Source of the DNA: Bacteroidaceae bacterium | GTDB lineage: Bacteria > Bacteroidota > Bacteroidia > Bacteroidales > Bacteroidaceae | NCBI GenBank assembly: GCA_045126595.1 | Contig: JBGVOS010000040.1 | Coordinates: 2,467-66,466, forward strand | Direction: 5' to 3' | DNA: 64,000 nucleotides | Shown: positions 41,841 through 63,707 of the stretch, in pieces | How the letters are laid out: each line of letters begins with the position of its first letter | Position numbering within the stretch: the first letter of the stretch is position 1 | The notes under the pieces: model-generated | Told to the model about the DNA's origin: nothing | The model's database searches: none | The model's input: only the letters and a program-made list of their open reading frames with translations | Translations under genes and position numbers: made by a program

Positions 41841-41905
41841 TCTAAACACTAAACACTAAACCCTAAACACTAAACACTAAACACTAAACACTAAACACTA
41901 AACCC
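41841..41905. repeat. Heptamer array (CTAAACA/CTAAACC)~9
   Basis: ctaaacactaaacactaaaccctaaacactaaacactaaacactaaacactaaacactaaaccc. It contains the stop codon and last codons of the HprK-like gene. Confidence 0.9.
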
Positions 41906-42760
41906 ATTTCCACAAACCACCACCGCTTCCCTATCGGGCCGGCATGCCATCTTCCCTATCGTCACATGCTCGGCGAGCCAGATGAGTTTGTCACATAGGG
42001 CAGCATATAGTCGCTTGTCCTGTTTGATTACGGCACACCCGGGTACCAATGCGATGAATGCCTCCACTCCAGTTAACGTATGGAACTGGTTTACAGGCGC
42101 CTGCTCCAGTCGCACGACACCTCCTATCGGATAGCACACATCCTTATAGCAGGGTGTCTTGCCACTCCAGGGCGAGCCATACACGTATGCCCTCCCCTCC
42201 TTGACTCGCAGGATAGGGTTATCATCGTTAATATGTTCGGTTCCCGCGATATGCTGCAGCCATAGCGCCGCATGCGTACTCTTTCCCGTTCCGCTCTTGC
42301 CGAGAAACAGGTATCCCTTCCCTTTATATGCTACCGCCGAGGCATGTATACCTATTCCCTCCCGATGCAATATCGCCTGAGAGAATACGATGCGCAGCAT
42401 CGAGCACAACATCTGCCCCACGTAAGGGTCTTCCCACTGCATCGCCGCCTTCACGTAGCTGAACTCCCTATCGGCTATCAGCGTATGGGTCAGTGGCGCC
42501 AGTTCATGATGCGCCTCTATACAATAGCCATGCTCCGTACTCCACACCTTCACACACCCCATATCGTTCACCGACTCGTCGAGCAACACCGCTCCCTCGC
42601 CACGCTCTACGGCCGTTGCCGTAGCATCGAATCGGAAGAGAAGAGATCCGTCACTCTCGCCACAATATACAAAGCCACGGAACGAAGGCAACAACTCTCC
42701 CTCGTCCATGCCTTGTGGCAGTACCACATCGAATCGATAATCAGCGACTTTGTAGTTCAT
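41891..42760 (-). CDS. HprK-related (HPr kinase C-terminal-like) P-loop kinase
   Basis: 289-aa ORF with the P-loop LFLGKSGTGKSTHAAL in the HprK C-domain context. It belongs to a cassette with PqqD-like and nucleotidyltransferase genes. The last 6 codons and the stop lie in a heptamer array. Confidence 0.7.
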   Translation of the reverse strand: MNYKVADYRFDVVLPQGMDEGELLPSFRGFVYCGESDGSLLFRFDATATAVERGEGAVLLDESVNDMGCVKVWSTEHGYCIEAHHELAPLTHTLIADREFSYVKAAMQWEDPYVGQMLCSMLRIVFSQAILHREGIGIHASAVAYKGKGYLFLGKSGTGKSTHAALWLQHIAGTEHINDDNPILRVKEGRAYVYGSPWSGKTPCYKDVCYPIGGVVRLEQAPVNQFHTLTGVEAFIALVPGCAVIKQDKRLYAALCDKLIWLAEHVTIGKMACRPDREAVVVCGNGFSV

Positions 42761-42816
42761 AGAAGGGATGAAGGGTTACAGGGGGAAGGGTTACGGGTTA
42801 CAGGGGGAAGGGAACT
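42761..42816. repeat. G-rich degenerate array (GAAGGGTTACRGG)
   Basis: agaagggatgaagggttacagggggaagggttacgggttacagggggaagggaac, immediately upstream of the HprK-like start codon. Confidence 0.8.
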
Positions 42817-42825
42817 TCCGCATTC

Positions 42826-43088
42826 GTGTCATCTCGAGAGCATCGAGAGATCTCGCAAAGTTCGTGTCAGTGAGTCCAAAGTAACTTTTGCAGCGAATGT
42901 AGCCGAACTAAATGCAAGGCACTAAAAGGAGTTGGTGTTTTCATAGCCCCAGCGCGGGAGAAGTGCTAAAGCACACTCCTCAGGGGAGATAAACCTCCCT
43001 TTGTCGTCAATGCGGAGCGCTCGGCTAGTCCGAGAACCGACGCTATCATACCGCGTCGGCGGTGCTCCGCTTTGTCGAGATGACAGAC
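42826..43088. repeat. Long (263-bp) member of the same family with terminal inverted repeats GTGTCATCTCGAG / TCGAGATGACAGAC and a structured insert
   Basis: The left end gtgtcatctcgagagcatcgagagatctcgcaaag is nearly identical to the left end of the copy at 60029. The right end is ctttgtcgagatgacagac. It lies between the HprK-like and NTase genes. Confidence 0.7.
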
Positions 43089-43108
43089 TGTCCCTTAATC
43101 CCATAACG

Positions 43109-43150
43109 CTACACACTAAACTCTAAACACTACACACTACACACTACACA
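43109..43150. repeat. Heptamer array (CTAAACT/CTACACA)
   Basis: ctacacactaaactctaaacactacacactacacactacaca. It overlaps the NTase stop codon. Confidence 0.85.
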
Positions 43151-44217
43151 TTCCCAACAGCCAACCGAAGCACCATCCACCAAGCCTCCTTGCGTGCATA
43201 TCGCCATGCAAAGCCCCTTCTGCGCCAGAAGGCCAGCAACGTCTGCCCCTTGCGTCGCCATCCACGCAGCTCGGTGTTATGTTGTGCCTGATGTTGACCG
43301 AAGTTACCTCCTTCGCCAATGATGGTCTCCAAGGGAGCTGTATCCTCTTTATCGAGGTCAGCATAAGGCTGCAAATTCTCGGGGAGCCCGATATATTTCA
43401 CCAGATAGGCATGCAGCAATCGGCTCCACCGCTCCATGCCCGCCTCGGCATACACCTCGCGCAACTGCGCAAGCTTGATCTTATCTTGTACTTTATAATA
43501 GGTACGCGCGATATCACACAACTGACGAAGCCCCACCCCTGCCCCTACGGCATGCTTCATGATATGTGCGTTCTGCATCAGCAGGTTGAGGGTCGGCATA
43601 GGCACCCTCATCGCAGGACGTCCCGTGTCATCGTCTTCGAGCTGTTCGCCCCTCCATATGATGGTCAGGTCATCGGCATAGCGTTTCTTGGACGGTGTAG
43701 CGATATCCACCATCACAGCATGGTGCTCGATGGCCACTCCCTGGAATGTATAACACAGGCTACCGTCGGCATGTACCTCACAGGCCATGCCCGCTGCCCG
43801 CACGACCTCTGCCGCCTTCTTCCTCTCCTCGACGTAGAAGTACAGGTCAATGTCGCCACACTCCCTGCATAGTGGTGCCTCATACATCGCAGCCACCCCC
43901 TGCCCCTTCATCACGATGGGATGCAGGCCACGCTGCTCAAGCCGTTGCAGCAATGCCGCCAGTGCCGCATTCGCCTGTCGGTTGTTCCGCTCTATGCGGT
44001 CGACCTCGGCCACCCAGGGGAGCAGTATCTGCATCGGGGGCATCAGCGCCTCGGGCAACAGACCGATACCTCGATATACAGTTCCCGTCACCGTCTGCCT
44101 GCGCGCCTCCTTGAGCAGTTGGGTCCACTCCTCGTCACTGAGCGGAAATAGCGCCAGCTCCTCTATGGGCTGCTCCCATAGTCCTGCTCTCAATAATATA
44201 AATAGAGCCGTCTCCAC
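43144..44217 (-). CDS. Uncharacterised nucleotidyltransferase family protein (pol-beta-fold; NTP_transf_5-like)
   Basis: 357-aa ORF with ...MKGQGVA..Y..P..RECGDIDLYF, a GDxD-type NTase motif. Its architecture is that of the NTase found beside PqqD/HprK-like genes. Confidence 0.65.
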   Translation of the reverse strand: METALFILLRAGLWEQPIEELALFPLSDEEWTQLLKEARRQTVTGTVYRGIGLLPEALMPPMQILLPWVAEVDRIERNNRQANAALAALLQRLEQRGLHPIVMKGQGVAAMYEAPLCRECGDIDLYFYVEERKKAAEVVRAAGMACEVHADGSLCYTFQGVAIEHHAVMVDIATPSKKRYADDLTIIWRGEQLEDDDTGRPAMRVPMPTLNLLMQNAHIMKHAVGAGVGLRQLCDIARTYYKVQDKIKLAQLREVYAEAGMERWSRLLHAYLVKYIGLPENLQPYADLDKEDTAPLETIIGEGGNFGQHQAQHNTELRGWRRKGQTLLAFWRRRGFAWRYARKEAWWMVLRLAVGNV

Positions 44218-44221
44218 TCTT

Positions 44222-44249
44222 CCGTTAACCGCTAACCGTTAACCGTTAG
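44222..44249. repeat. Heptamer array (CCGTTAA/CCGCTAA)x4
   Basis: ccgttaaccgctaaccgttaaccgttag. It encodes the PqqD C-terminus GLTVNG* on the minus strand. Confidence 0.85.
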
Positions 44250-44504
44250 CCCAAACTCTCTCCACTCCTCTAACATTACCGCCACATCGTGGACAGCCTG
44301 TTCGCGTGCCACGTCATACTCCTCGCACAGGTAGTCCACCATCTCCCCGTCCGTGAACTCGCGTCCCTCGAAGGCCTGCCACAGCGTCGCTGCCGTCTCG
44401 TTCAGGGTATATACGTCCACCATATTTACCTGTTCGGTGTCGGCATCCACGATCATATAGTTGCTGCCCATCTTGCGCAGCATCAAATTCTCTTTCAGTT
44501 TCAT
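44232..44504 (-). CDS. PqqD-family (RRE-type peptide-binding) small protein
   Basis: 90-aa ORF: ...YTLNETAATLWQAFEGREFTDGEMVDYLCEEYDVAREQAVHDVAVMLEEWREFGL, the PqqD-like winged-helix pattern. Confidence 0.75.
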   Translation of the reverse strand: MKLKENLMLRKMGSNYMIVDADTEQVNMVDVYTLNETAATLWQAFEGREFTDGEMVDYLCEEYDVAREQAVHDVAVMLEEWREFGLTVNG

Positions 44505-44513
44505 ATCTATTAA

Positions 44514-44633
44514 GTGTGTAGGGTGTAGAGTGTAGGGTGTAGGGTGTAGAGTTTAGGGTGTAGAGTAGCTCCGCGATGTAATTCCTCCGGATAACAGCAC
44601 TAAACTCTAAACTTTAAACACTAAACTCTAAAC
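44514..44633. repeat. Inverted pair of heptamer half-arrays (GTGTAGG/GTTTAGG ... spacer ... CTAAACT)
   Basis: G-arm at 44514-44567, 30-nt spacer, C-arm at 44598-44633. It fills the gap between the GT4 stop and the PqqD start. Confidence 0.85.
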
Positions 44634-45733
44634 TTTTTATATATCTCCAATGCCCCCGCTATCATCCGTTCCTTGACGAAAAGCTTCTCGTAGCGCAGTC
44701 GTGCTCCCGTGGCATACACCTCGTAGGCATCGCGATCCTTGGTGATGGCCAGTATGGCCTCGGCTATCTCCTTGGCCTCTTCGGGCGTCACGTTGAGTCC
44801 CGATATGCCATGCTCGTTCACCCACGACGTGCCGCTCCCCGGTATGCGTGTCGCTATCACCGGCCTGCCACAGCTCATCGCCTCTATCTGTACGATGCCG
44901 AAGGCCTCGGTCTTCTGCACCGAGGAGAGCACAAACAATTCGCTCGCCGTGTAGTAGGCCGGCAGCTCCTCGTCCTTGACAAACCCGAGGAGCTTCACCT
45001 TCTCCTCCAGGTGCAGCTTCTCAATCAGCGCCTGATGCTCCTCTCTCAAGGGTCCCGTACCTCCTATCACGATCACATAGTCGTCGGGGAGGTATTGGGC
45101 TGCCTCTATCAAGTATTTATATCCTTTATAGTGCACCAGTCGTCCCAGCGAGAACACCATCTTACGTCCGCGATACACCTCGCGCAGCCGCTGTGCCCCC
45201 TCGATGTCGGCGGGCATCTCGTCCACGCCGATGGGCAGGTATGTCACCTTGTGCTGCACCTCGCGCAGGTCCTCCGACTCCTTCACGTAGATGGGCGTGG
45301 TTCCCACGATCAGGTCGGCACGGCGGATGAGCCACTTCTGGAACGGACGGTACAACTCCATCAACCGTTTCTGTCGTATGATATCGCTGTGCCAGTGCAA
45401 CACCACCTTACCGCGGTATCCCGAGAAGAAGAGCGCCATGCACGCCATCGGGTCGGGGTGATGCACATGGATGATGTCATACTTGTTACATATCCTCCAC
45501 AGCGTCGTTATCATCGACGGAGCGATCATTGTGCCTGCTACCTCCATCCAGGTGTGGCAGCACATCAGCTTCGCCCGTTCCCCTACCGTGAGGGTACTTC
45601 CCTTTCCCTTGACCGATGCACACAGCATATCACATTCTATGCCCTGCTTGTCGAGTCCTTCCATCAGGTCATACTCCACCTTCTCTACTCCACCCTTGAT
45701 GGGATAGAATTTACCTAATTGTAGTATTTTCAT
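44621..45733 (-). CDS. Glycosyltransferase family 4
   Basis: 370-aa ORF with a GT-B fold and the EAFGIVQIEAMSCGRPVIAT (E-X7-E) motif. Confidence 0.88.
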   Translation of the reverse strand: MKILQLGKFYPIKGGVEKVEYDLMEGLDKQGIECDMLCASVKGKGSTLTVGERAKLMCCHTWMEVAGTMIAPSMITTLWRICNKYDIIHVHHPDPMACMALFFSGYRGKVVLHWHSDIIRQKRLMELYRPFQKWLIRRADLIVGTTPIYVKESEDLREVQHKVTYLPIGVDEMPADIEGAQRLREVYRGRKMVFSLGRLVHYKGYKYLIEAAQYLPDDYVIVIGGTGPLREEHQALIEKLHLEEKVKLLGFVKDEELPAYYTASELFVLSSVQKTEAFGIVQIEAMSCGRPVIATRIPGSGTSWVNEHGISGLNVTPEEAKEIAEAILAITKDRDAYEVYATGARLRYEKLFVKERMIAGALEIYKKFRV

Positions 45734-45743
45734 TCTTGTAATG

Positions 45744-45837
45744 TTGAAGGGTTAAAGGTAAGAGGTTAAGGGTGAAGGGTGAATGAATAACCGCTAATCC
45801 GCTAACCGCTAACCACTAACCTGTAACCTTTAACCGT
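45744..45837. repeat. Inverted pair of half-arrays (GGTTAAG/GGTGAAG then CCGCTAA/CCTTTAA)
   Basis: gttgaagggttaaaggtaagaggttaagggtgaagggtgaatg | aataaccgctaatccgctaaccgctaaccactaacctgtaacctttaaccg. The outer ends (gggttaaaggt / acctttaaccg) are nearly complementary (10 of 11 positions). Confidence 0.85.
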
Positions 45838-56732: not shown

Positions 56733-57800
56733 TCAAATCATTTTATTCTGATTCAGATGATCAACAATCAATGAGATGTATTTGCTACCAGTGTAAATGC
56801 GTTGTTTGCGAGAGTTCCATGCAGATATATTATCGTTAATATACTCAATAAAAGAAACTTTATCTGAAATATCACAACGCGAGGCTGATTGCTCTTCGTT
56901 CAATATGTAATCAACCGTTGACAATAACTCCAACGAGTAGTTGGAATAATATCCACGCAGAAAGTCTTTCGTACGATTGGCAATATCACGATACGTCTTG
57001 TTCTCTGGTGATTCGAGGTACGATGTGATATACTGGGCTGTGTCATCAAGCAGCCAGAGGGCATCGAACGGCTTGTTCTGCATCCCTACCATCCCCTTGA
57101 TATAACTGCCGTTAAGATAATAGAGTACATGGGCAATCTTACCACCTGAATATGGGCCATAATATCCGCGAGTAAACTCAATCTTGAATATGTCTTTTGC
57201 TCCAAGACGTTGAAGGAAATATACAATCTTCTCCGCCGCAAAAACTGAAATAAACTCACCATACGACACCATATCGCATAACACATCAAGGAGCATTGCA
57301 CGAGCAGGAGTCAACTTTACGCGTTCTTCCTTCATCTTCTCCACAATAGCCATAGAAGGTTCATATATACGGATATCGCAGTCAAGATCACCCAGTGAAT
57401 CGATAATCATCTTTTTTACACGAGACCAGTCAAGGCCTCCATTATGAGAGCCAAGAGGGGGGATAGCTATGGAACGTATACCTAATTCCTGTATCTTGCT
57501 TCTCAAAGCGATAAGTCCTGATTCTATATATGCATATTCTGATGGTTTGCGCCAAGTGGTCTTGGTCGGGAAATTGATGATCAGTTTATCCCCATCAAGG
57601 CGCTTGTTCTCTGTGATGAGAAGCTGGCCTACGGTCAACATACCCTCTTTACAGGCTCTGCGATAGATGCTATAGTTCTCCGGAAAACGCTCCTTGAACT
57701 GCAACGCAATACCCTTACCCATAACCCCTACAGTATTCACCGTATTTACCAAGGCTTGGGCATCATCCATGAGCAAATCGCCTTTTATATAGGTAATCAT
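56733..57800 (-). CDS. darG: DarG-type macrodomain antitoxin (ADP-ribosyl-DNA glycohydrolase + C-terminal DarT-binding domain)
   Basis: The N-terminal macrodomain is ITYIKGDLL...ALVNTVNTVGVMGKGIALQFKERFP...IAIPPLGSHNGGL. It lies 2 nt downstream of darT. Confidence 0.85.
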   Translation of the reverse strand: MITYIKGDLLMDDAQALVNTVNTVGVMGKGIALQFKERFPENYSIYRRACKEGMLTVGQLLITENKRLDGDKLIINFPTKTTWRKPSEYAYIESGLIALRSKIQELGIRSIAIPPLGSHNGGLDWSRVKKMIIDSLGDLDCDIRIYEPSMAIVEKMKEERVKLTPARAMLLDVLCDMVSYGEFISVFAAEKIVYFLQRLGAKDIFKIEFTRGYYGPYSGGKIAHVLYYLNGSYIKGMVGMQNKPFDALWLLDDTAQYITSYLESPENKTYRDIANRTKDFLRGYYSNYSLELLSTVDYILNEEQSASRCDISDKVSFIEYINDNISAWNSRKQRIYTGSKYISLIVDHLNQNKMI

Positions 57801-57802
57801 AA

Positions 57803-58414
57803 TCAGTAATAATAATCTGAGTTAACAACAATTAGATTAACATCGATACCATAATGAATCAACCTTTGTTTAGCCAGTTCATTATAGACAACATATCCAC
57901 AGATATAGTTTGGCGAAAGCGCGTTCCTAATCAACAATTCTGCCTCTTTACGTCGTTTAAGGTCTGTATCTGTTTCGCTAATCCAATACTTTGCGTAAAC
58001 CTCATCATAAGAAACGATACTGTTTATCTCAGTAAGCTTGTCGTGTGTATAGAAATCCGTGAGTGCACTTAACGCATGCCCATCAGTAAAAAGACATTCA
58101 ACATTATCAGCTATCAACTCTTCTATTTTTATCACACAATATACTATGTCTTCTGGATTCTGCTTTTCCACCCCATTATATCCATGCTGAATAACATATA
58201 GCATCACCGAACGTGGACCAAAATAAAATGGAATATACTGCGCCAAATCATACCCCTTTATCTTCGTAGCCCTTTTCCCTATAACCTCTCTGTCACCTAT
58301 AGACTTATAGGTAGAACTAGCAAATTCTGAGCCAGGAAGCACAAAACCCGTTTCACTGATATAAGGGATATTATCAATGTGGGTGATTCTGAATCCGTAA
58401 CGTATTTTATTCAC
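57803..58414 (-). CDS. darT: DarT (DUF4433) ssDNA ADP-ribosyltransferase toxin
   Basis: FRITHIDNIPYI, YIPFYFGPRSVMLYVI, FTDGHA and RRKEAELLI align motif-for-motif with characterised DarT (YHITHIDNL / VPFYFCPRSPMLYAI / FTDRHA / KKQAEFLV) as I recall it. Confidence 0.88.
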   Translation of the reverse strand: MNKIRYGFRITHIDNIPYISETGFVLPGSEFASSTYKSIGDREVIGKRATKIKGYDLAQYIPFYFGPRSVMLYVIQHGYNGVEKQNPEDIVYCVIKIEELIADNVECLFTDGHALSALTDFYTHDKLTEINSIVSYDEVYAKYWISETDTDLKRRKEAELLIRNALSPNYICGYVVYNELAKQRLIHYGIDVNLIVVNSDYYY

Positions 58415-58496
58415 TACGGTTAAGGGTGTGGTAGTTAAGGATGAGCACTGAAAGGACAGCCGGAGTCTGGGATTAACGTGTAAATGATTAATGCTC
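58415..58496. repeat. Short array-type spacer (GGTTAAG-like) between darT and the DUF3791 gene
   Basis: cggttaagggtgtggtagttaaggatgagc ... gattaacgtgtaaatgattaatg. Confidence 0.6.
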
Positions 58497-58715
58497 TCAA
58501 CCCATAACGCCGGTCAATAATTCGTGCTCAAGGAACGAATATACATATTTCGGACTCTGATAATACAAACCTGTGTTCTTGTCGCGAAGTTTTATGTAGG
58601 TGTCCGAGGTATATACCGTATCTATGGCCTCTTGAAAGGATAGATTTCTCTTTTCCATAAGTAGCGTGGTCAATTCCGCTGCTATGTACTCTACCATATA
58701 TTCTATGTCGTTCAT
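58497..58715 (-). CDS. DUF3791-like small protein
   Basis: 72-aa ORF overlapping the upstream gene by 4 nt (ATGA). It is the partner type that usually accompanies DUF3990. The family assignment is from memory. Confidence 0.6.
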   Translation of the reverse strand: MNDIEYMVEYIAAELTTLLMEKRNLSFQEAIDTVYTSDTYIKLRDKNTGLYYQSPKYVYSFLEHELLTGVMG

Positions 58716-59185
58716 AGTTTAGATAAGTGTGAAATGGATCTCTCTGTTCCGAAAAAGTACTGAAAGGTTATACCCTTGAAGTATTTTATCCGATGAAGGA
58801 ACTCTCCCATGTCTATGCTCCCTTCTGTCAACTTCTGCATTTGGAGTCCAATCTTGTCGTTGGCTATCGGACCGTATATCACATCATACTCATCTTGCAA
58901 AAATTCGGATTCTTCTCTGTTTTTGAATACAAATTTTGCCCATTCTTCTGAATATGAATCAAAGGATAGGTATCGCAATGTGCCATCCGATAGTTTGCGT
59001 TCGTCAAAACTGAATGAAGTGACTATAGGAGTGCCACCCAATGCCATGGTACGTAGGGAAGCCATTTGCTCGGCCTGCTGTAAATCGGCAGACAGGTAAA
59101 AACCTCTTCCAAAATCCTTGAAAGGTTTTGATTTTAGCAACTCTATATTGTTTATTTCAACGTTGCTGCCATGATAAAGTATCAT
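58712..59185 (-). CDS. DUF3990-like protein with PARP-like H-Y-E motifs (candidate ADP-ribosyltransferase fold)
   Basis: 157-aa ORF with LYHGS (res 3-7), GRGFYLSAD (26-34) and DEYDVIYG (98-105). It has 4-nt overlaps with both neighbours. Confidence 0.65.
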   Translation of the reverse strand: MILYHGSNVEINNIELLKSKPFKDFGRGFYLSADLQQAEQMASLRTMALGGTPIVTSFSFDERKLSDGTLRYLSFDSYSEEWAKFVFKNREESEFLQDEYDVIYGPIANDKIGLQMQKLTEGSIDMGEFLHRIKYFKGITFQYFFGTERSISHLSKL

Positions 59186-59409
59186 ACGATGCCTCCTCCT
59201 TGACGTTTCATATAATTGACTAGCATATCCATCGCATCAGAAAAACTAAGAGTATGCATGATGTCATAATGCTTGTCTACCATATCTACTCCTCCATAAC
59301 GCTTCACATAGCGATATGACTGTAGTACGTTCAAATTATGCCACTTGGCGAAGTGTGATATGAGTGACATCAGATATTCTGCCTTGTCTCTAATTATAGA
59401 TCTTTCCAT
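59182..59409 (-). CDS. DUF3791-like small protein
   Basis: 75-aa ORF containing ...YDIMHTLSFSDAMDMLVNYMKRQGG. It is the first gene of a translationally coupled three-gene operon. Confidence 0.6.
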   Translation of the reverse strand: MERSIIRDKAEYLMSLISHFAKWHNLNVLQSYRYVKRYGGVDMVDKHYDIMHTLSFSDAMDMLVNYMKRQGGGIV

Positions 59410-59470
59410 ACGATATTTATATTCATAGGCAAAGTAACAAATAATTTAGTTGACCTCCTATGCTTTTAAC

Positions 59471-59854
59471 CATTTTTGAGGATACGATTAACGAGTAACG
59501 AAGACAGCTGCGCTATACGATGATATAATAAACGAAGATAGCCGGAGGTTGTACGAAGAGCGACAAGCGCTACGAAAATAGCCTTTGGCTATACGAAAAT
59601 ACTAAACAGTACGATGGGTTATTGTTTTCTTAGGGTTCTTATCAATCGGCTTAGCTGACACTCTATAGAGGTGACAGACGAATTTAAGGCTTCATAGCCT
59701 TCGTACTGCCTCGGCAGTATTTGTTATCGTTATTATTGCTTTTCGTGCATCGTGCGCGCTTTGCGTGCCTTCGTACAGCTTTAGCTGTCTTTGTAGCGGA
59801 TCACCGCTCTTCGTGCACTCCGTGCCTTCGTTGTCACTTTGCTCGCAAAGTGAC
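59471..59854. repeat. ACGAAGA-array | four-helix-bundle gene remnant | TTCGT-array, ending in a 10-bp perfect hairpin
   Basis: The left part contains ...aacgaagacagctgcgctatacgatgatataataaacgaaga...TAGCCtttGGCTAtacgaaaa. The right part contains cttcgt-ACTGCCtcGGCAGT, cttcgt-ACAGCTttAGCTGT, cttcgt-GCACtccGTGC and GTCACTTTGCtcGCAAAGTGAC. Confidence 0.85.
59619..59675 (-). pseudogene. 3'-terminal remnant of a second four-helix-bundle (Avd-like) gene
   Basis: ttattgttttcttagggttcttatcaatcggcttagctgacactctataga matches ttattgtttccttaaggttctaatcaatcgacttagttggcactcgataga at 47147-47197, roughly 85% identity by eye. It would encode ...SIECQLSRLIRTLRKQ*. The rest of the ORF is missing. Confidence 0.7.
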
Positions 59855-60028
59855 ATACCTCTGGGGCTTAGACTAATTCATAATCGCATAAGAATCAGCC
59901 TATTAGATAGCAACAGCGTGTTAATTTCTCTATGCATAAGAGAAGTTTGGTGTAAAGATACGTGTTTATATTTGATTTTCATACTTTTTAACGATTTATT
60001 TTGAGGGGAAGGGTGAGCAGCCGCGTTC

Positions 60029-60158
60029 GTGTCATCTCGAGCGAATGCGAGAGATCTCGTAAAGTCTCTTGAAATATAATCTCCAGTCCCAGCGTGAGAT
60101 CCTTGACTTCAGCCCCTTCGGGCGTCGACCTAAAGGTTCACTTCGTTCAGGATGACAC
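60029..60158. repeat. REP/MITE-like palindromic element (130 bp)
   Basis: gtgtcatctcgagcgaatgcgagagatctcgtaaag ... gtcccagcgtgagatcc ... cacttcgttcaggatgacac. The internal gtcccagcg.gagatcc segment is shared with the copy at 34578. Confidence 0.75.
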
Positions 60159-60174
60159 GGAGAGCCCCTACCTC

Positions 60175-60236
60175 CTTAACCCTTCACCTTTTAACCCTTA
60201 ACCTTTAACCCTTCACCTTTAACCCTTAACCCTTTC
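60175..60236. repeat. C-orientation GGTTAAG/GGTGAAG-type array
   Basis: cttaacccttcaccttttaacccttaacctttaacccttcacctttaacccttaaccctttc, abutting the VirE-like stop codon. Confidence 0.85.
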
Positions 60237-60237
60237 A

Positions 60238-62454
60238 TCACTCCAAAGCGCTGAGGCGGGCGGTCTCCTGCTGGCGTAGCTTGATGTCGGTGTGGGTGAG
60301 CAGGATGACATTCCATCCACGTATGTTGTCATGACGGCGGGGCTGGTAGCCCAGGCGGTTCATCCAGATGGCGATGGTGCGCGGCAGGAGTGGGGTCTTC
60401 ACACCGATGTTGATGGTCTCGATGATACGTGTGGCGGTGTAGAACTCGCCCACCTCGTGCGGCTCGGGACGGCGGAAGTAGGTCTGTATGAGCTCACACT
60501 CCATGTTGGGTTCCTCGAAGTGGTGGTTGTGGCACTCGAGCTCGGCATTCTCCTCGGCGGTAAACCAATAGGGGAATCCTTCACACCATAGGGCATAGGC
60601 CTGGGCATAGAGGCCCTCGTAGGGGATGGGATGATCGTAGGGCGAGTCGATGCTGTCGACCATGAAGGGGAGCCAGCGACGGTTGCCGGTGAGGTCGGTG
60701 AGGAAGCGGGGGTTGTTGCCCGTGGCACAGAACGAGGCGATATGTTCGCGACGCTCGCGGTAACGGGCATAGGCGGCACGCTCGTTCACCGAAGGGTCGG
60801 TGGTGAGGGCCTTGAGCTGGTTGAGCGCGCGAGGCTTCAGGTTGTCGAGCTCCTCGAGGGCGATGAGGGCCATCTCGGTGAGCTCCAGACGGTCGTCCCT
60901 GTCCATGCGATGGGCAAAGTTGCGGGCCGAGAAGTAATCGCGCAGCACGGGAGGTAGCAGGTGGCGCATGAAGGTACTCTTGAAGATACCTTGCGAACCG
61001 ATATAGGTGAGTATCTCGTGGTTGGTCTTGTCGGGATCGAACCATGCCGCCACCATGCCTACAAACCACTTCCTGAAGTAGCGGTTGTGCATCTCCTGCG
61101 AGCAGCCGGTGACATGGACGCGAGAGGCGAGCTCTTCGATGTAGTCGTATCCATCCCACGGGGAAAGGCTGGTCATATACTCGCGCATGGGGTGGTACTC
61201 GGGGTAGAAATCGCTCTCGATGATGATGTAGAGGTCGGAGAGACGCAGCCTACGGCCGGTGTCGAGGGAGAAGGCGCGGTAGAGCGAGTGGACGTGGCGG
61301 TCGGTGAGCTCGGACCATAGTAACGATGACGAAAACGAAGACGAAGACTTTTTCTCCAATTTATCATCGTTATGGTCATCGTACAGCTCTTGGGCGGTGG
61401 TGGCTGGCGGTGGACAATGGGTACCTATCTCCCACTTGCGACTGATGACGTTGTGGCGTATGCGGACCTCCTTCTGGGTGAGGTAGTCCTGTATCTCGGC
61501 TACCGTGGCACAGCTGTCTTTCTTCTCACGAGGCAACTGCCGAGTGGCATGCTCGGTGGTCTGCTGGTAGCAGGAGCGGACGATGGAGGCGACGTCGTTG
61601 CCCGCAGCGGCATAGTCGGTAAAGCGGGCAAGGGCCCATGCCGTACAGTCGGTCTCGGACACTCCGTAGCGGTTCATCAGGTAGCAGGCCTGCGAGATGT
61701 AGCGGTTGTGCTCGCCGGGGATGTAGCATACGCCACGGCGCTCCAGCTGCTCGCAGACATGCGACTCGGCAGCCTCGGCCGTACGCACCTGGCGTGGACG
61801 ACCCGAAGGGCGCTTGGCCTCGAGCTGCACCTCGAAGGGCACAGCAGCAGGGTTGTAATGGAGCGTGGGATCATAGGCGGCGCCCGACAGACGGGTGGCA
61901 TTCTTGCACAAGGGGTCGGTGGCAAGGCCGGTGAGGGTCTCGTAGTAGGCGTTGACCTGAAGGAAGGCGGACTTGTACTCGGGGAATGAGGAGCGGTGAA
62001 CGGGAAACGGGGAGGGGGCAGCGGGGAGCGGATGAGCGGTTAGAGGGTGAGCGGATGAGGGGTGAGCGGGGAGCGTATACCGCGCCACGACACGCACGCC
62101 CTGTCCCGAGATGGTGGTATAGGCAAGCAGGGTGTGGGGGTCGTGGCCGACGAGCGTCAACACGCGCGGCATATCGTCGGGCGACACGTGGTCGATATCG
62201 ACGAGGGTGAGCCCGGTGAAGGCGGCGATATGGTCCTTGCGCTTGCCACCCTCGAAGCGTACGGCCACGCTGAAGCAGGGCATGCGGCGTTTGTAATGCT
62301 GGGCACCGGCCTTATCGCCGATACTGCGATAGTAGCGGTGCTTGTCGGTGAGGTCACGTAGCGAAGCGTCGGTGCGCATCATCTCTACCAGAGCGTCGAG
62401 CTCGATGGGCATGGGGGACTCGTCGGTCCACCCGTTGAAAAGGGATAGTTGCAT
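60238..62454 (-). CDS. VirE/primase-like protein (BT4734-type N-terminal domain + VirE P-loop domain)
   Basis: 738-aa ORF. The N-terminus ...MPCFSVAVRFEGGKRKDHIAAFTGLTLVDIDH is typical of the BT4734-like domain. The C-half resembles virulence-associated protein E. Two low-complexity in-frame inserts are present. Confidence 0.75.
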   Translation of the reverse strand: MQLSLFNGWTDESPMPIELDALVEMMRTDASLRDLTDKHRYYRSIGDKAGAQHYKRRMPCFSVAVRFEGGKRKDHIAAFTGLTLVDIDHVSPDDMPRVLTLVGHDPHTLLAYTTISGQGVRVVARYTLPAHPSSAHPLTAHPLPAAPSPFPVHRSSFPEYKSAFLQVNAYYETLTGLATDPLCKNATRLSGAAYDPTLHYNPAAVPFEVQLEAKRPSGRPRQVRTAEAAESHVCEQLERRGVCYIPGEHNRYISQACYLMNRYGVSETDCTAWALARFTDYAAAGNDVASIVRSCYQQTTEHATRQLPREKKDSCATVAEIQDYLTQKEVRIRHNVISRKWEIGTHCPPPATTAQELYDDHNDDKLEKKSSSSFSSSLLWSELTDRHVHSLYRAFSLDTGRRLRLSDLYIIIESDFYPEYHPMREYMTSLSPWDGYDYIEELASRVHVTGCSQEMHNRYFRKWFVGMVAAWFDPDKTNHEILTYIGSQGIFKSTFMRHLLPPVLRDYFSARNFAHRMDRDDRLELTEMALIALEELDNLKPRALNQLKALTTDPSVNERAAYARYRERREHIASFCATGNNPRFLTDLTGNRRWLPFMVDSIDSPYDHPIPYEGLYAQAYALWCEGFPYWFTAEENAELECHNHHFEEPNMECELIQTYFRRPEPHEVGEFYTATRIIETINIGVKTPLLPRTIAIWMNRLGYQPRRHDNIRGWNVILLTHTDIKLRQQETARLSALE

Positions 62455-62457
62455 GGA

Positions 62458-62768
62458 GGTTAGGGTTTAGGGTTTAGGGTTTAGAGTTTAGTGTTTAGGG
62501 TGTAGGGTTTAGGGTGTAGGGTGTAGGGTGTAGAGTGTAGAGTTTAGTGTTTAGGGTGTAGGGTGTAGGGTTTAGGGTTTAGGGTGTAGAGTTTAGAGTT
62601 TAGGGTTTAGTGTTTAGAGGTTAGGGGGTAGGGTTTAGAGGTTAGGGTTTAGTGTTTAGGGTTTAGAGTTTAGTGTTTAGGGTGTAGGGTGTAGGGTTTA
62701 GGGGTTAGTGTTTAGGGGTTAGGGTTTAGGGACCGTTAACCGTTAACCGCTCACCGCTCACCGTTAAT
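62458..62768. repeat. ~270-bp degenerate heptamer array (TTTAGGG/TGTAGGG/TTTAGAG/TTTAGTG, roughly 40 units) followed by CCGTTAA/CCGCTCA heptamers
   Basis: Read directly from the sequence. It begins 4 nt upstream of the VirE-like start codon. It includes runs such as GGGtgtaGGGtttaGGGtgtaGGGtgtaGGG. Confidence 0.92.
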
Positions 62769-62881
62769 CACTCCAAAGGTAGGGGGAATATTTCAGGGGC
62801 GTTACCCCATATGTGGGGCAATAACTTTATATTTGCCAACATCTTTTTAGAATCATTAACAAATAAACGCTGCACACACGT

Positions 62882-63143
62882 ATGAAACTTACTCATCCCT
62901 GCCCGCTGGGCACCTTTATCGTAGGGGAGCGCATGGCGCTCGGCTGCCCTGTCAAGACCTTCTGCCGCGAATGTGGTATCACCGTGAAGACCTATTACCG
63001 TCTGTTGGGGGGAAAAAGCTACGCTCACGAGCTATGCTAAGGTAATAGACTACCTATACTATGCCCACCAACCGGACGAACGGGCCAACTTTGCCATGGC
63101 ATTCGTGAGGGCTTTCATGCCACTGCGCCACGGCTGCCACTAA
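62882..63143 (+). pseudogene. Small HTH-like gene interrupted by a frameshift in a G6A5 homopolymer tract
   Basis: The frame from the ATG at 62882 gives MKLTHPCPLGTFIVGERMALGCPVKTFCRECGITVKTYYRLLGGKSYAHELC* (stop at 63038). The +1 frame continues from the tract at 63007-63017 as ...GEKATLTSYAKVIDYLYYAHQPDERANFAMAFVRAFMPLRHGCH* (stop at 63141). One fewer G fuses them. A TAtaTTTG box sits at 62828-62835. Confidence 0.45.
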
Positions 63144-63284
63144 CTTTTACACCCCTTATAGGGAGAAAATAAATATCAATATATAATAGTATCACGATAT
63201 ATACCTATTATATCGACTATAGGGAGTCGCCCCGCGCGGGCCGACCGTGGCGTTGTGGCAGGGAAGCGGGGAGCGGGGAACGGC

Positions 63285-63390
63285 CCCTACACCCTAACCC
63301 CTAAACACTACACACTAAACCCTACACACTAAACCCTAAACCCTAAACACTAAACTCTAAACCCTAAACTCTAAACACTACACGCTAAAC
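63285..63390. repeat. Heptamer array in the opposite (CCCTAAA/CACTAAA/CACTACA) orientation
   Basis: cctacaccctaacccctaaacactacacactaaaccctacacactaaaccctaaaccctaaacactaaactctaaaccctaaactctaaacactacacgctaaac. It is inverted relative to 62458-62731. Confidence 0.9.
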
Positions 63391-63403
63391 AAAAAAAACA
63401 ATG

Positions 63404-63497
63404 GAGTGAACGCCGAAAATCACTCTACTGCTTTTCGGAAAACAATAGAGTGAACTTCAAAAATCAGTAGAGTGATTTTTAGAAAACATTAGAGCGA
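63404..63497. repeat. Iteron-like GAGTGA motifs phased at 22 nt
   Basis: GAGTGA at 63404, 63448 and 63470, and GAGCGA at 63492. An inverted copy (tcactc) sits at 63420-63425. Each lies in a shared context aacaatRgagtgaac / gtagagtgat / ttagagcgat. Confidence 0.7.
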
Positions 63498-63500
63498 TTT

Positions 63501-63707
63501 TCACGGCTCGCCCAGGTACTCGAAGATAATCTGTACCTGACGACGGGTGAGGCGGCGCGAGGCACGCTGGTAGCCCACGCGCTCGAGGGCGGGCAGCAGG
63601 CCGTGGGCCGAAGTGATGTACTTGTGTAACAGGCGCAGGGCCGAGGAGCGCGGGGCACCAGGGAAGTAGAGCTGGGCAAGGTCGCTCTTGGTTAATGATT
63701 GTATCAT
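63501..63707 (-). CDS. DUF4248 domain-containing protein
   Basis: 68-aa ORF ...LTKSDLAQLYFPGAPRSSALRLLHKYI......L.ALERVGY....R.LT.RQV..IFEYLGEP, the DUF4248 pattern commonly found next to VirE-like genes at Bacteroidales capsule loci. Confidence 0.75.
   Translation of the reverse strand: MIQSLTKSDLAQLYFPGAPRSSALRLLHKYITSAHGLLPALERVGYQRASRRLTRRQVQIIFEYLGEP

Follow-up and report, generated by a model that had tools for sequence, protein, structure and literature searches.

Of the long simple repeats that bacteria carry, arrays of heptanucleotides are the most frequent kind. We report here on a run of 39 tandem heptamers (positions 62458-62731, + strand, counted in the TAG register) that lies beside the start codon of a BT4734-like_N/VapE-like gene in a 64,000-nucleotide stretch of contig JBGVOS010000040.1 (assembly GCA_045126595.1), derived from an uncultured gut Bacteroidaceae lineage. 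The whole stretch is referred to as the window, its coordinates are used throughout unless a related locus (L002, L003 and so on) is named, and the run itself is called the main, or proximal, array. The tract is a real, fast-changing 7-base microsatellite. It belongs to an already described class of bacterial heptamer repeats, from whose known members it differs in unit, mosaic composition, size, phylum and an apparent confinement, within the window, to accessory DNA. A first-pass annotation of the window had regarded arrays of this kind as very unusual in bacteria, a view at odds with the published record, in which heptanucleotides rank as the most frequent long simple sequence repeats (SSRs) of prokaryotes and G-rich heptamers with the same position and strand rule have been reported (PMC4692102, PMC4679880).

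Rehm et al. (2015; PMC4692102) described GGGAATC and GGGGA(C/T)T repeats in Xanthomonas and Nostoc, which are intergenic, mostly between co-oriented open reading frames (ORFs), with the G-rich strand antisense in the 50 bp that precede an ORF and sense in the 50 bp that follow a stop codon, sometimes overlapping the stop; these repeats are transcribed, vary between Xcc and Xac, and are of unknown function. The window arrays share with them a G-rich 7-nt unit, the intergenic site, the strand rule, the occurrence of inverted pairs and the variation between relatives. They differ in having the unit KKTAGDG, with GGG in about half of the units, and up to 39 copies as against 26. In place of the preference for four units and the genome-wide spread seen in Xanthomonas and Nostoc, the window arrays span 3-39 units and occur, within these 64 kb, only in the accessory polysaccharide/defence region. 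The phylum is also different, the window coming from Bacteroidota, which do without Shine-Dalgarno use, and whereas the Xanthomonas and Nostoc repeats form G-quadruplexes (G4) in vitro, the window array is known in this respect at the motif level only.

In Beggiatoaceae, cyanobacteria and Bacteroidetes, MacGregor (2015; PMC4679880) found TAACTGA arrays that end shortly, by a few nucleotides, before start codons and that take the reverse orientation behind a stop codon, with heptamer arrays of up to 43 copies in the Bacteroidetes Gramella and Aequorivita and with contigs that break in the repeats. The start-proximal site, the presence of several heptamers per intergenic region, relatives without repeats at the same site and the contig breaks all recur here, whereas the unit is different and forms a mosaic of at least eight variants, the arrays pair as inverted arms, and the alleles of different strains can be compared directly. 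Together with the TAACTGA arrays, the cyanobacterial short tandemly repeated repetitive (STRR) heptamers are grouped among the closest known systems. In the survey of Mrazek et al. (2007), as reported in PMC4679880, heptanucleotides were the most abundant prokaryotic class of long SSRs (5-11 nt), and an origin by slippage was proposed; the window array shares its period and its non-coding location with that class, of which it is a member by definition, and the survey as reported there comes without a mechanism or a strand rule. Tandem 7-nt units, a non-coding bias, a strand rule and copy-number variation, features of the described class, are found in the window arrays; a literature search on heptamer repeats in Bacteroidales returned nothing specific.

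The contingency repeats of Haemophilus and Neisseria lie inside ORFs or between the -35 and -10 elements and have units of 1-5 nt. Like them, the window array is a hypermutable tandem repeat beside a gene, in a surface-polysaccharide region; unlike them, it is placed in a predicted leader, between a candidate -7 box and the ATG, outside the promoter elements and outside the ORF. [quoted passage not shown]

The main array and its inverted counterpart

On the + strand the units follow one another head-to-tail with the consensus KKTAGDG, which reads CHCTAMM in the sense of the VapE-like gene; positions 3, 4, 5 and 7 are fixed and positions 1, 2 and 6 vary, giving a mosaic family of at least eight unit variants. 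Tandem Repeats Finder delimited the array at 62460-62731 (period 7, 38.9 copies, 84% matches, score 334). The ATG of the VapE-like gene, which encodes 738 aa on the minus strand, occupies 62452-62454, leaving 3-5 nt between it and the array. These values agree with the ~270 bp, the roughly 40 heptamers and the distance of 4 nt from a VirE/primase-like start codon that the first-pass annotation had given. An autocorrelation scan of the window returned nine runs at period 7 versus 0-1 at periods 5, 6, 8 and 9, indicating that the periodicity is specific and not an effect of composition.

The array had also been taken to extend as far as a small divergent helix-turn-helix (HTH) gene. The array is there, but it does not fill the whole gap: a gapless junction joins it to a second heptamer block, (ACCGTTA/ACCGCTC) x5 at 62732-62767 (+ strand, Tandem Repeats Finder), which is conserved in L002, L019 and L026, and the small ORF at 62882 begins after a further ~115 bp of unique DNA that holds the candidate promoters. 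This ORF (62882-63040, + strand, in the ORF list), which encodes 52 aa and diverges from the VapE-like gene, is identical at 49 of 52 residues in L002 and is called as a gene in L002, L019 and L020. Its assignment as HTH found no support, the resemblance being by eye only and no significant match, to an HTH or any other family, being present in Pfam or NCBIfam.

Beyond the small ORF, a distal array of 15 KKTAGDG units (15.1 copies) lies on the minus strand at 63285-63392 (63285-63390 by Tandem Repeats Finder), inverted with respect to the main array, with which it is paired as an inverted copy, much as noticed before. It is preceded by a (GGGGAGC) x3 block (63261-63283, + strand), the inverted counterpart of the block at 62732-62767. 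The best pair of inverted arms formed by the main and distal arrays is 123 nt long and has 83% complementarity.

Variation between strains

Loci for comparison were found through VapE-like homologues and through exact matches of the DUF4248 and 52-aa proteins, and come from independent metagenome assemblies. The scan of metagenome contigs yielded only eight loci, and that of genome contigs with the VapE-like protein a single distant locus (37% identity) without arrays; an exact look-up of the window's own VapE-like protein returned no record. The flanks of the compared strain loci are 93-98% identical to the window, and the length variation that had been expected of a genuine array is strong, with 0, 17, 28 or 39 proximal and 0, 4, 15, 20 or 21 distal units. 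The proximal array has 39 units in the window and in L026, 28 in L003, 17 in L002, at least 17 in L021 (where the contig ends) and none in L019 and L020, and the distal array has 15 in the window, L021 and L025, 20 in L002, 21 in L027, 4 in L024 and none in L019 and L020. The order of the units changes as well: the two proximal alleles of 39 units have the same unit at only 12 of 39 places, and the distal alleles share their first three units (kfc), anchored beside a T8 run, and have scrambled interiors, one of them with the anchored end doubled (kfckfc). Turnover of the arrays by gain and loss of units and blocks far outpaces mutation of the flanks. In more than 190 units across assemblies, positions 3, 4, 5 and 7 never vary.

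L019 keeps a predicted G-free leader of 54 nt at the site of the main array, built from different C-rich heptamers, (CCCCTTC)(ACCTTTC). In the distant relatives L009 and L004, whose VapE-like proteins are 72% and 61% identical to that of the window, arrays of the CTAAACA type end at the ATG; relatives at 51-53% identity are without arrays, and in others the start of a VapE, DUF4248 or HU-HIG gene carries a short array built on different heptamers. The array is real, old as a positional feature and extremely unstable in detail. The locus constitutes a natural allelic series (0, 4, 15-21, 28 and 39 units, with nearly identical flanks) in a phylum without Shine-Dalgarno use, which makes it useful for testing what heptamer repeats do, be it leader-length tuning, Rho loading or the provision of start-codon-free leaders. 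Arrays of this kind also break short-read assemblies of gut Bacteroidaceae polysaccharide loci.

Other arrays in the window and the strand rule

The first 38 kb of the window hold housekeeping genes (EF-G, PurD, TopA, Tex, HisS and PurA); TopA shares 93% identity with proteins recorded as "MAG: Bacteroidaceae bacterium". From 38.4 kb a Bacteroidales-type polysaccharide locus follows on the minus strand, with Wzc-like and Wza-like genes, many glycosyltransferases, LicD and an acyltransferase, and upstream of the polysaccharide genes lie DarT/macro, DUF3990/DUF3791 and the VapE-like gene. Over the 64 kb, period-7 arrays are present in 7 of 13 intergenic segments of this accessory region, where they make up 23% of the bases, versus 0 of 18 (3654 bp) in the housekeeping part. 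Their units are CTAAACA, GTGTAGG, CCGTTAA, TAACCGC, TGAAGGG, CCTTAAC and GGAGCGG; they adjoin or overlap start and stop codons, and all but one are intergenic.

The smaller arrays previously seen near 41841, 43109 and 44514-44633 were located at 41842-41903, 43105-43150, 44516-44563 and 44600-44634, and share a unit family. As written on the + strand, (CTAAACA) x8.9 at 41842-41903 overlaps the stop codon of a 289-aa gene, the repeat unit itself supplying the TAG stop (41891), (AACACTA/CACACTA) x6.6 at 43105-43150 overlaps the stop codon of the NTP_transf_5 gene, and an inverted intercistronic pair at 44516-44634, (GTGTAGG) x6.9 and (CTAAACT) x5 on either side of a 36-bp spacer, is predicted to form an mRNA hairpin (fold z=-2.9). 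A further intercistronic pair, (TGAAGGG) x5.6 and (TAACCGC) x6.9, occupies 45745-45836 (+ strand; mRNA fold z=-3.7). Where C-rich and G-rich arrays share one gap in this way they are complementary, and it is these pairs that give the mRNA hairpins. Lastly, (CCTTAAC) x8.6 at 60174-60234 (+ strand) begins 3 nt past the VapE stop codon and is G-rich in the sense of the gene; it belongs to an array-core-array unit (60003-60229) that is missing from L003.

In the sense of the adjacent gene, start-proximal arrays are C-rich and G-free, and stop-proximal arrays are G-rich. Over the window and the related loci, all of the real start-proximal arrays (n = 10/10) were C-rich in sense and most of the stop-proximal calls (n = 8/11) were G-rich in sense, the exceptions adjoining doubtful ORFs. 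Genes on opposite strands only 2 kb apart in L002 both keep the rule, indicating that it tracks gene orientation and not the direction of replication. An independent set of 70 unrelated IMG/VR contigs with at least five units of xxTAGxG was also analysed: 126 of 136 arrays were outside ORFs, with 28 C-rich versus 7 G-rich arrays at starts and 42 G-rich versus 27 C-rich arrays at stops (Fisher P=8e-5). The strand rule is clear, and valid both in the lineage of the window and in unrelated contigs. General leader composition was considered as its source and rejected, the housekeeping leaders of the window being A/T-rich with G about equal to C.

The IMG/VR loci (L028-L097) are viral or prophage contigs with GC contents of 0.27-0.69, in which xxTAGxG arrays reach 101 copies. 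The longest, of GTTAGAG, is found in L052 (4143-4853), and another example in L045 (8743-9234). Most of these arrays are homogeneous in unit, unlike the mosaic array of the window, and several high-GC contigs carry 4-9 separate arrays.

Candidate promoters and the predicted leader RNA

A search for the Bacteroidetes -7 pattern TAnnTTTG placed a candidate box for the VapE-like gene, TACCTTTG, at 62781-62774 (minus strand), directly upstream of the repeat blocks, and a candidate box for the 52-aa ORF, TATATTTG, at 62828-62835 (+ strand). The TACCTTTG box is identical in L002, L019 and L026, and the TATATTTG box is conserved in the same three loci and in L004, where it is followed by repeat blocks and then by the ATG, in the same layout as in the window. 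Exactly between the two divergent boxes lies the palindrome CCCCAtatgTGGGG (62805-62818), within a 35-bp block that is 86% conserved in L004, a locus whose VapE protein is 61% identical; the palindrome may be an operator, possibly for the product of the 52-aa ORF. A scan for sigma-70 promoters and terminators stayed at background level, the sigma-70 model not being applicable to Bacteroidetes promoters.

The minus strand, which is the coding sense, is without G over 280 nt, so that no TAnnTTTG box is possible inside the array and the main array would be transcribed as the 5' leader of the VapE-like gene, with a predicted transcription start at ~62767. The last 277 nt of this predicted leader lack G and consist of C (44%), A (38%) and U (17%), and its proximal 146 nt have a minimum free energy (MFE) of 0 kcal/mol. 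Over its full 319 nt the leader has no AUG or UUG, three GUG, all within the first ~36 nt, and stops in all frames; the G-free tract permits no AUG, GUG or UUG in the last 277 nt. Sixteen sites in the leader can start a [(YC)N9-13]6 pattern, and a (CCCUAAA)n tract offers the (YC)N12 spacing at each second unit. Since the arrays are inverted and the candidate promoters divergent, both transcripts would carry the C-rich version, and the G-rich strand would be the template for both.

These features can be set beside two published descriptions. In Bacteroidetes, initiation without a Shine-Dalgarno sequence is tuned by mRNA structure, with AUG avoided near the start (PMC6847099), and a Rho loading site is by working definition an unstructured tract of at least 80 nt, rich in C and poor in G, in which YC dimers recur at intervals of 9-13 nt (PMC6144790). 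The predicted leader has the sequence features of a Rho utilisation (rut) site: 277 nt with 44% C and 0% G, and an MFE of 0 over the proximal 146 nt. Slippage control of the two divergent promoters, a role put forward earlier, does not agree with the layout, in which neither candidate -7 box falls within the array and the array follows the candidate VapE promoter as part of the predicted leader. Control through promoter spacing is ruled out by position, as the array is not between promoter elements.

Proposed mechanism and alternative explanations

We consider it reasonably probable that the array is a hypermutable heptanucleotide microsatellite within the transcribed leader that precedes the BT4734_N/VapE-like gene, and that selection acting on the mRNA has filtered its orientation. 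Transcription would most likely start just downstream of the -7 box at 62781-62774, giving an mRNA with ~36 nt of G-containing heptamers followed by ~277 nt of (CNCUAMM)39 up to 3-5 nt before the AUG. The G-free part of this RNA would offer neither secondary structure nor start codons, and would be compatible with the Shine-Dalgarno-independent selection of starts in Bacteroidota. Copy number and unit order would shift quickly through replication slippage or unequal exchange, slippage being the mechanism that we infer for the changes observed, so that the leader would differ in length between strains, from ~95 to ~313 nt. Selection at the mRNA level would filter orientation, leaving C/A-rich sense sequence before starts and G/U-rich sequence after stops, and both arms in one intergenic gap would produce an intercistronic hairpin.

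The likeliest effect of array length would in turn be to tune the VapE-like gene quantitatively, and possibly the genes after it, via Rho-dependent attenuation, an idea that comes from the resemblance of an unstructured, C-rich, G-free leader to a Rho loading site; a longer array would then be expected to cause more premature termination. Within operons, the G/U-rich arm that comes first could pair with short C-rich tracts and so mask them. Both the tuning and the masking are speculative, the likeness to rut sites being one of sequence only. A more general proposal, which we put forward tentatively and hold to be improbable, is that the arrays are a length-programmable regulatory layer of horizontally exchanged polysaccharide/defence loci, in which the CxCUAxx heptad of G-free leaders would be read every 7 nt by Rho or by a dedicated single-strand-binding factor, slippage would set, strain by strain, the transcription that reaches the accessory genes, and G/U-rich arrays after stops would mask the tracts in operons.

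Several points weigh against the leader microsatellite and the tuning attached to it. Slippage alone does not explain the four fixed unit positions in more than 190 units, nor does slippage explain the presence of arrays only among accessory genes (7/13 vs 0/18 intergenic segments) or the joint presence and absence of the two inverted arrays; leader composition alone, judging by the housekeeping leaders, does not explain the strand rule. Strains with 0 and with 39 units both exist, so that any effect of the array must be dispensable and not essential. The promoter call rests on a single 8-nt motif, TAnnTTTG, which occurs 45 times in the window as against 31 expected, and no -33 TTTG element was seen. 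The rules for Rho come from E. coli, and N-terminal insertions in the Rho of Bacteroidetes may alter its specificity (PMC6144790).

That the tract could be an assembly artefact, or contamination with plant or algal telomere DNA, is suggested by TTTAGGG being the plant telomere unit (a literature search on this repeat returned plant and algal telomere papers only) and by the short-read contigs L021, L024 and L025, which end in or beside arrays. The probability of this is negligible, given that six independent assemblies, namely the window and, at the same position, L002, L003, L021, L026 and L027, have an array between one and the same set of bacterial genes and next to unique sequence on either side. 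The array is thus internal, and its unit is not uniform: only 13 of the 39 units are exactly TTTAGGG, contrary to the identity with the plant unit claimed at first, and this count and the six assemblies effectively refute the contamination, for which such arrays can be mistaken. A DNA G4 element, in which the G3 runs of the + strand would pause RNA polymerase or the replisome and regulate the gene or stimulate local instability, has more in its favour. GGG occurs in 25 of the 39 units; the canonical motifs with 4-nt loops noted by the first-pass annotation on the template strand of the VapE-like gene are present as two runs of five G3 tracts (62498-62528 and 62554-62584), to which a run of four (62680-62704) is added; G4Hunter scores reach 1.8 in 25-nt windows, 40% of which score at least 1.2; every array-bearing allele has at least one run of at least four GGG units; and G4 formation in vitro is published for the related heptamer repeats of GGGNATC type (PMC4692102). 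However, unit position 6 can be G, A or T, leaving 14 of 39 units without GGG, and permuting the 39 units reproduces both the number of runs of four or more and their greatest length (P=0.40 and 0.90), by which selection for G4 runs was rejected. The related arrays at 41842, 43105 and 44600 have 0-1 GGG units, other unit families (GTTAAGG, TTAACGG, TGTTTAG) are without a G3 tract, the array is missing from L019 and L020, and the G-rich strand, as template for both diverging transcripts, would be absent from the RNA and would not be the displaced, non-template one. A G4 element is for these reasons unlikely; the G4 potential looks like an incidental by-product of the unit sequence, and the arrays inflate G4-motif counts with no sign that G4 is a selected feature. 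About as unlikely, in our judgement, is a sequence-specific heptad platform, in which the invariant xxTAGxG/CxCUAxx core would be a cooperative track for a single-stranded nucleic-acid-binding protein (of cold-shock/S1/OB type or unknown) that marks or regulates the transcripts of the accessory locus. Such a platform would suit the invariance of 4 of 7 unit positions in more than 190 units, across assemblies with VapE proteins 61-72% identical, as well as the confinement of the arrays to the accessory region and the strict strand rule, and MacGregor proposed a heptamer-binding regulator, CspB binding one protein per heptamer (PMC4679880). On the other side, no candidate binding protein was found, unrelated units (GAAGGGT, TTAACGG, CCTTAAC, TTAATCA) stand at equivalent positions, L019 has another heptamer family swapped in at the same site, and the invariance could stem from a few founder variants shuffled by slippage.

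The inverted geometry of the two arrays raises the possibility of a recombination substrate, which would either invert the promoter segment 62768-63260 as an on/off switch or provide portable homology for the exchange of gene cassettes. The 123-nt arms, with their 83% complementarity, flank a segment with two divergent -7 boxes, breaks in homology between strains coincide with arrays (the L003 upstream flank, the module at 58492-59851, the unit at 60003-60229 and position 14338 of L002), and MacGregor suggested a role in rearrangement for the long arrays of Gramella (PMC4679880). As arrays fill most intergenic gaps of the locus, however, module breakpoints beside them are expected by default. 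The small ORF, and with it the enclosed segment, has the same orientation in all seven assemblies in which it was compared (the window, L002, L019, L020, L021, L026 and L027; assemblies show the majority form only), a scan of neighbouring genes turned up no recombinase domain, and repeat-flanked regions were more stable, not less, in the study of Rehm et al. (PMC4692102). We accordingly see little likelihood in the recombination or inversion role that had been suggested for the arrays. Still less probable is that they are the ends of a mobile element, either as terminal inverted repeats of a MITE-like insertion or as a by-product of transposition. The inverted-arm geometry is present, a repeated core (42806-43105, 60016-60170 and L002 7712-7845) is always bracketed by G-rich and C-rich heptamer blocks, one array-core-array unit is polymorphic for presence/absence, and BrickBuilt of P. 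gingivalis is a MITE with a minisatellite (PMC4596501). Against this, the core 62768-63260 is single-copy in all the sequence compared and persists in L019 and L020, where the KKTAGDG arrays are missing, the empty site of L003 showed no target-site duplication, and the bracketing heptamer units differ between copies of one core. A MITE origin fits the repeated core, and not the 62768-63260 segment.

Neighbouring genes and minor observations

The VapE-like gene (60238-62454, minus strand) encodes a PrimPol/helicase-like protein with BT4734-like_N and VapE-like matches in Pfam and a weak PrimPol match (NCBIfam PrimPol_Db, E=1.8e-9). A period-7 signal at 61990-62075, inside this gene, was rejected as a heptamer array; it is an in-frame 15-bp repeat that encodes AHPSS/AHPLT in the PrimPol-like N-terminal domain and varies in copy number, with proteins of 738 aa in the window, 714 aa in L002 and 724 aa in L003. 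On the far side of the distal array lies a DUF4248 gene (63501-63707, minus strand; Pfam E=1.3e-20), and between its stop codon and the array, 22/44-bp repeats with hairpins and an A8/T8 run occupy 63395-63503. These repeats hold CACTCTACTG/CAGTAGAGTG hairpins, with the T8 run at the end in the sense of DUF4248, are 83% conserved in L002 and are also kept in L019 and L024; the region probably holds the 3' end, or the terminator, of DUF4248.

Defence-type genes, DarT with a macro-domain partner and DUF3990/DUF3791, lie between the VapE-like gene and the glycosyltransferases (window 56733-59409; L002 12589-15507). The DUF3990/DUF3791 module (58492-59851) is missing from L002 and L003, and L002 has a TIR_2 gene in its place.

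The MITE-like core has the sequence TTCGTGTCATCTCGAG...GAGATCTCG...GACTTCAGCCCCTTCGGGCGTCGACCTAAAGGTTC...GATGACAC in its copies at 42806-43105, 60016-60170 and L002 7712-7845, flanked to the left by a block of G-rich heptamers and to the right by one of C-rich heptamers, with different units in each copy; the copy within the 60003-60229 unit is absent from L003. Rfam gave no match for the whole window at the gathering threshold, and only noise for the core (59950-60260) at relaxed thresholds; the RNA fold of this core was no better than that of shuffles (z=-0.05). The longest G4-type run of the window, with seven G3 tracts in GAAGGGT/TACAGGG units, is at 42765-42812 (+ strand); the 289-aa minus-strand gene starts directly downstream of this run, which is again on the template strand.

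Within the polysaccharide locus, a trio of genes at 41891-44504 comprises a PqqD-like gene, the NTP_transf_5 nucleotidyltransferase gene and the 289-aa gene (weak PEPCK/HPr-kinase-like match), and heptamer arrays separate each of them from the next. Modular leaders were seen in L004 (150-290), the window (59480-59620) and L012 (8532-8619), in which a fixed TTAACC or ACGAAGA motif alternates with small hairpins; the stems of these hairpins differ in sequence and keep their complementarity, with a period of ~21 nt (3 x 7), which suggests that they are structure-preserving repeats related to the heptamer phenomenon.

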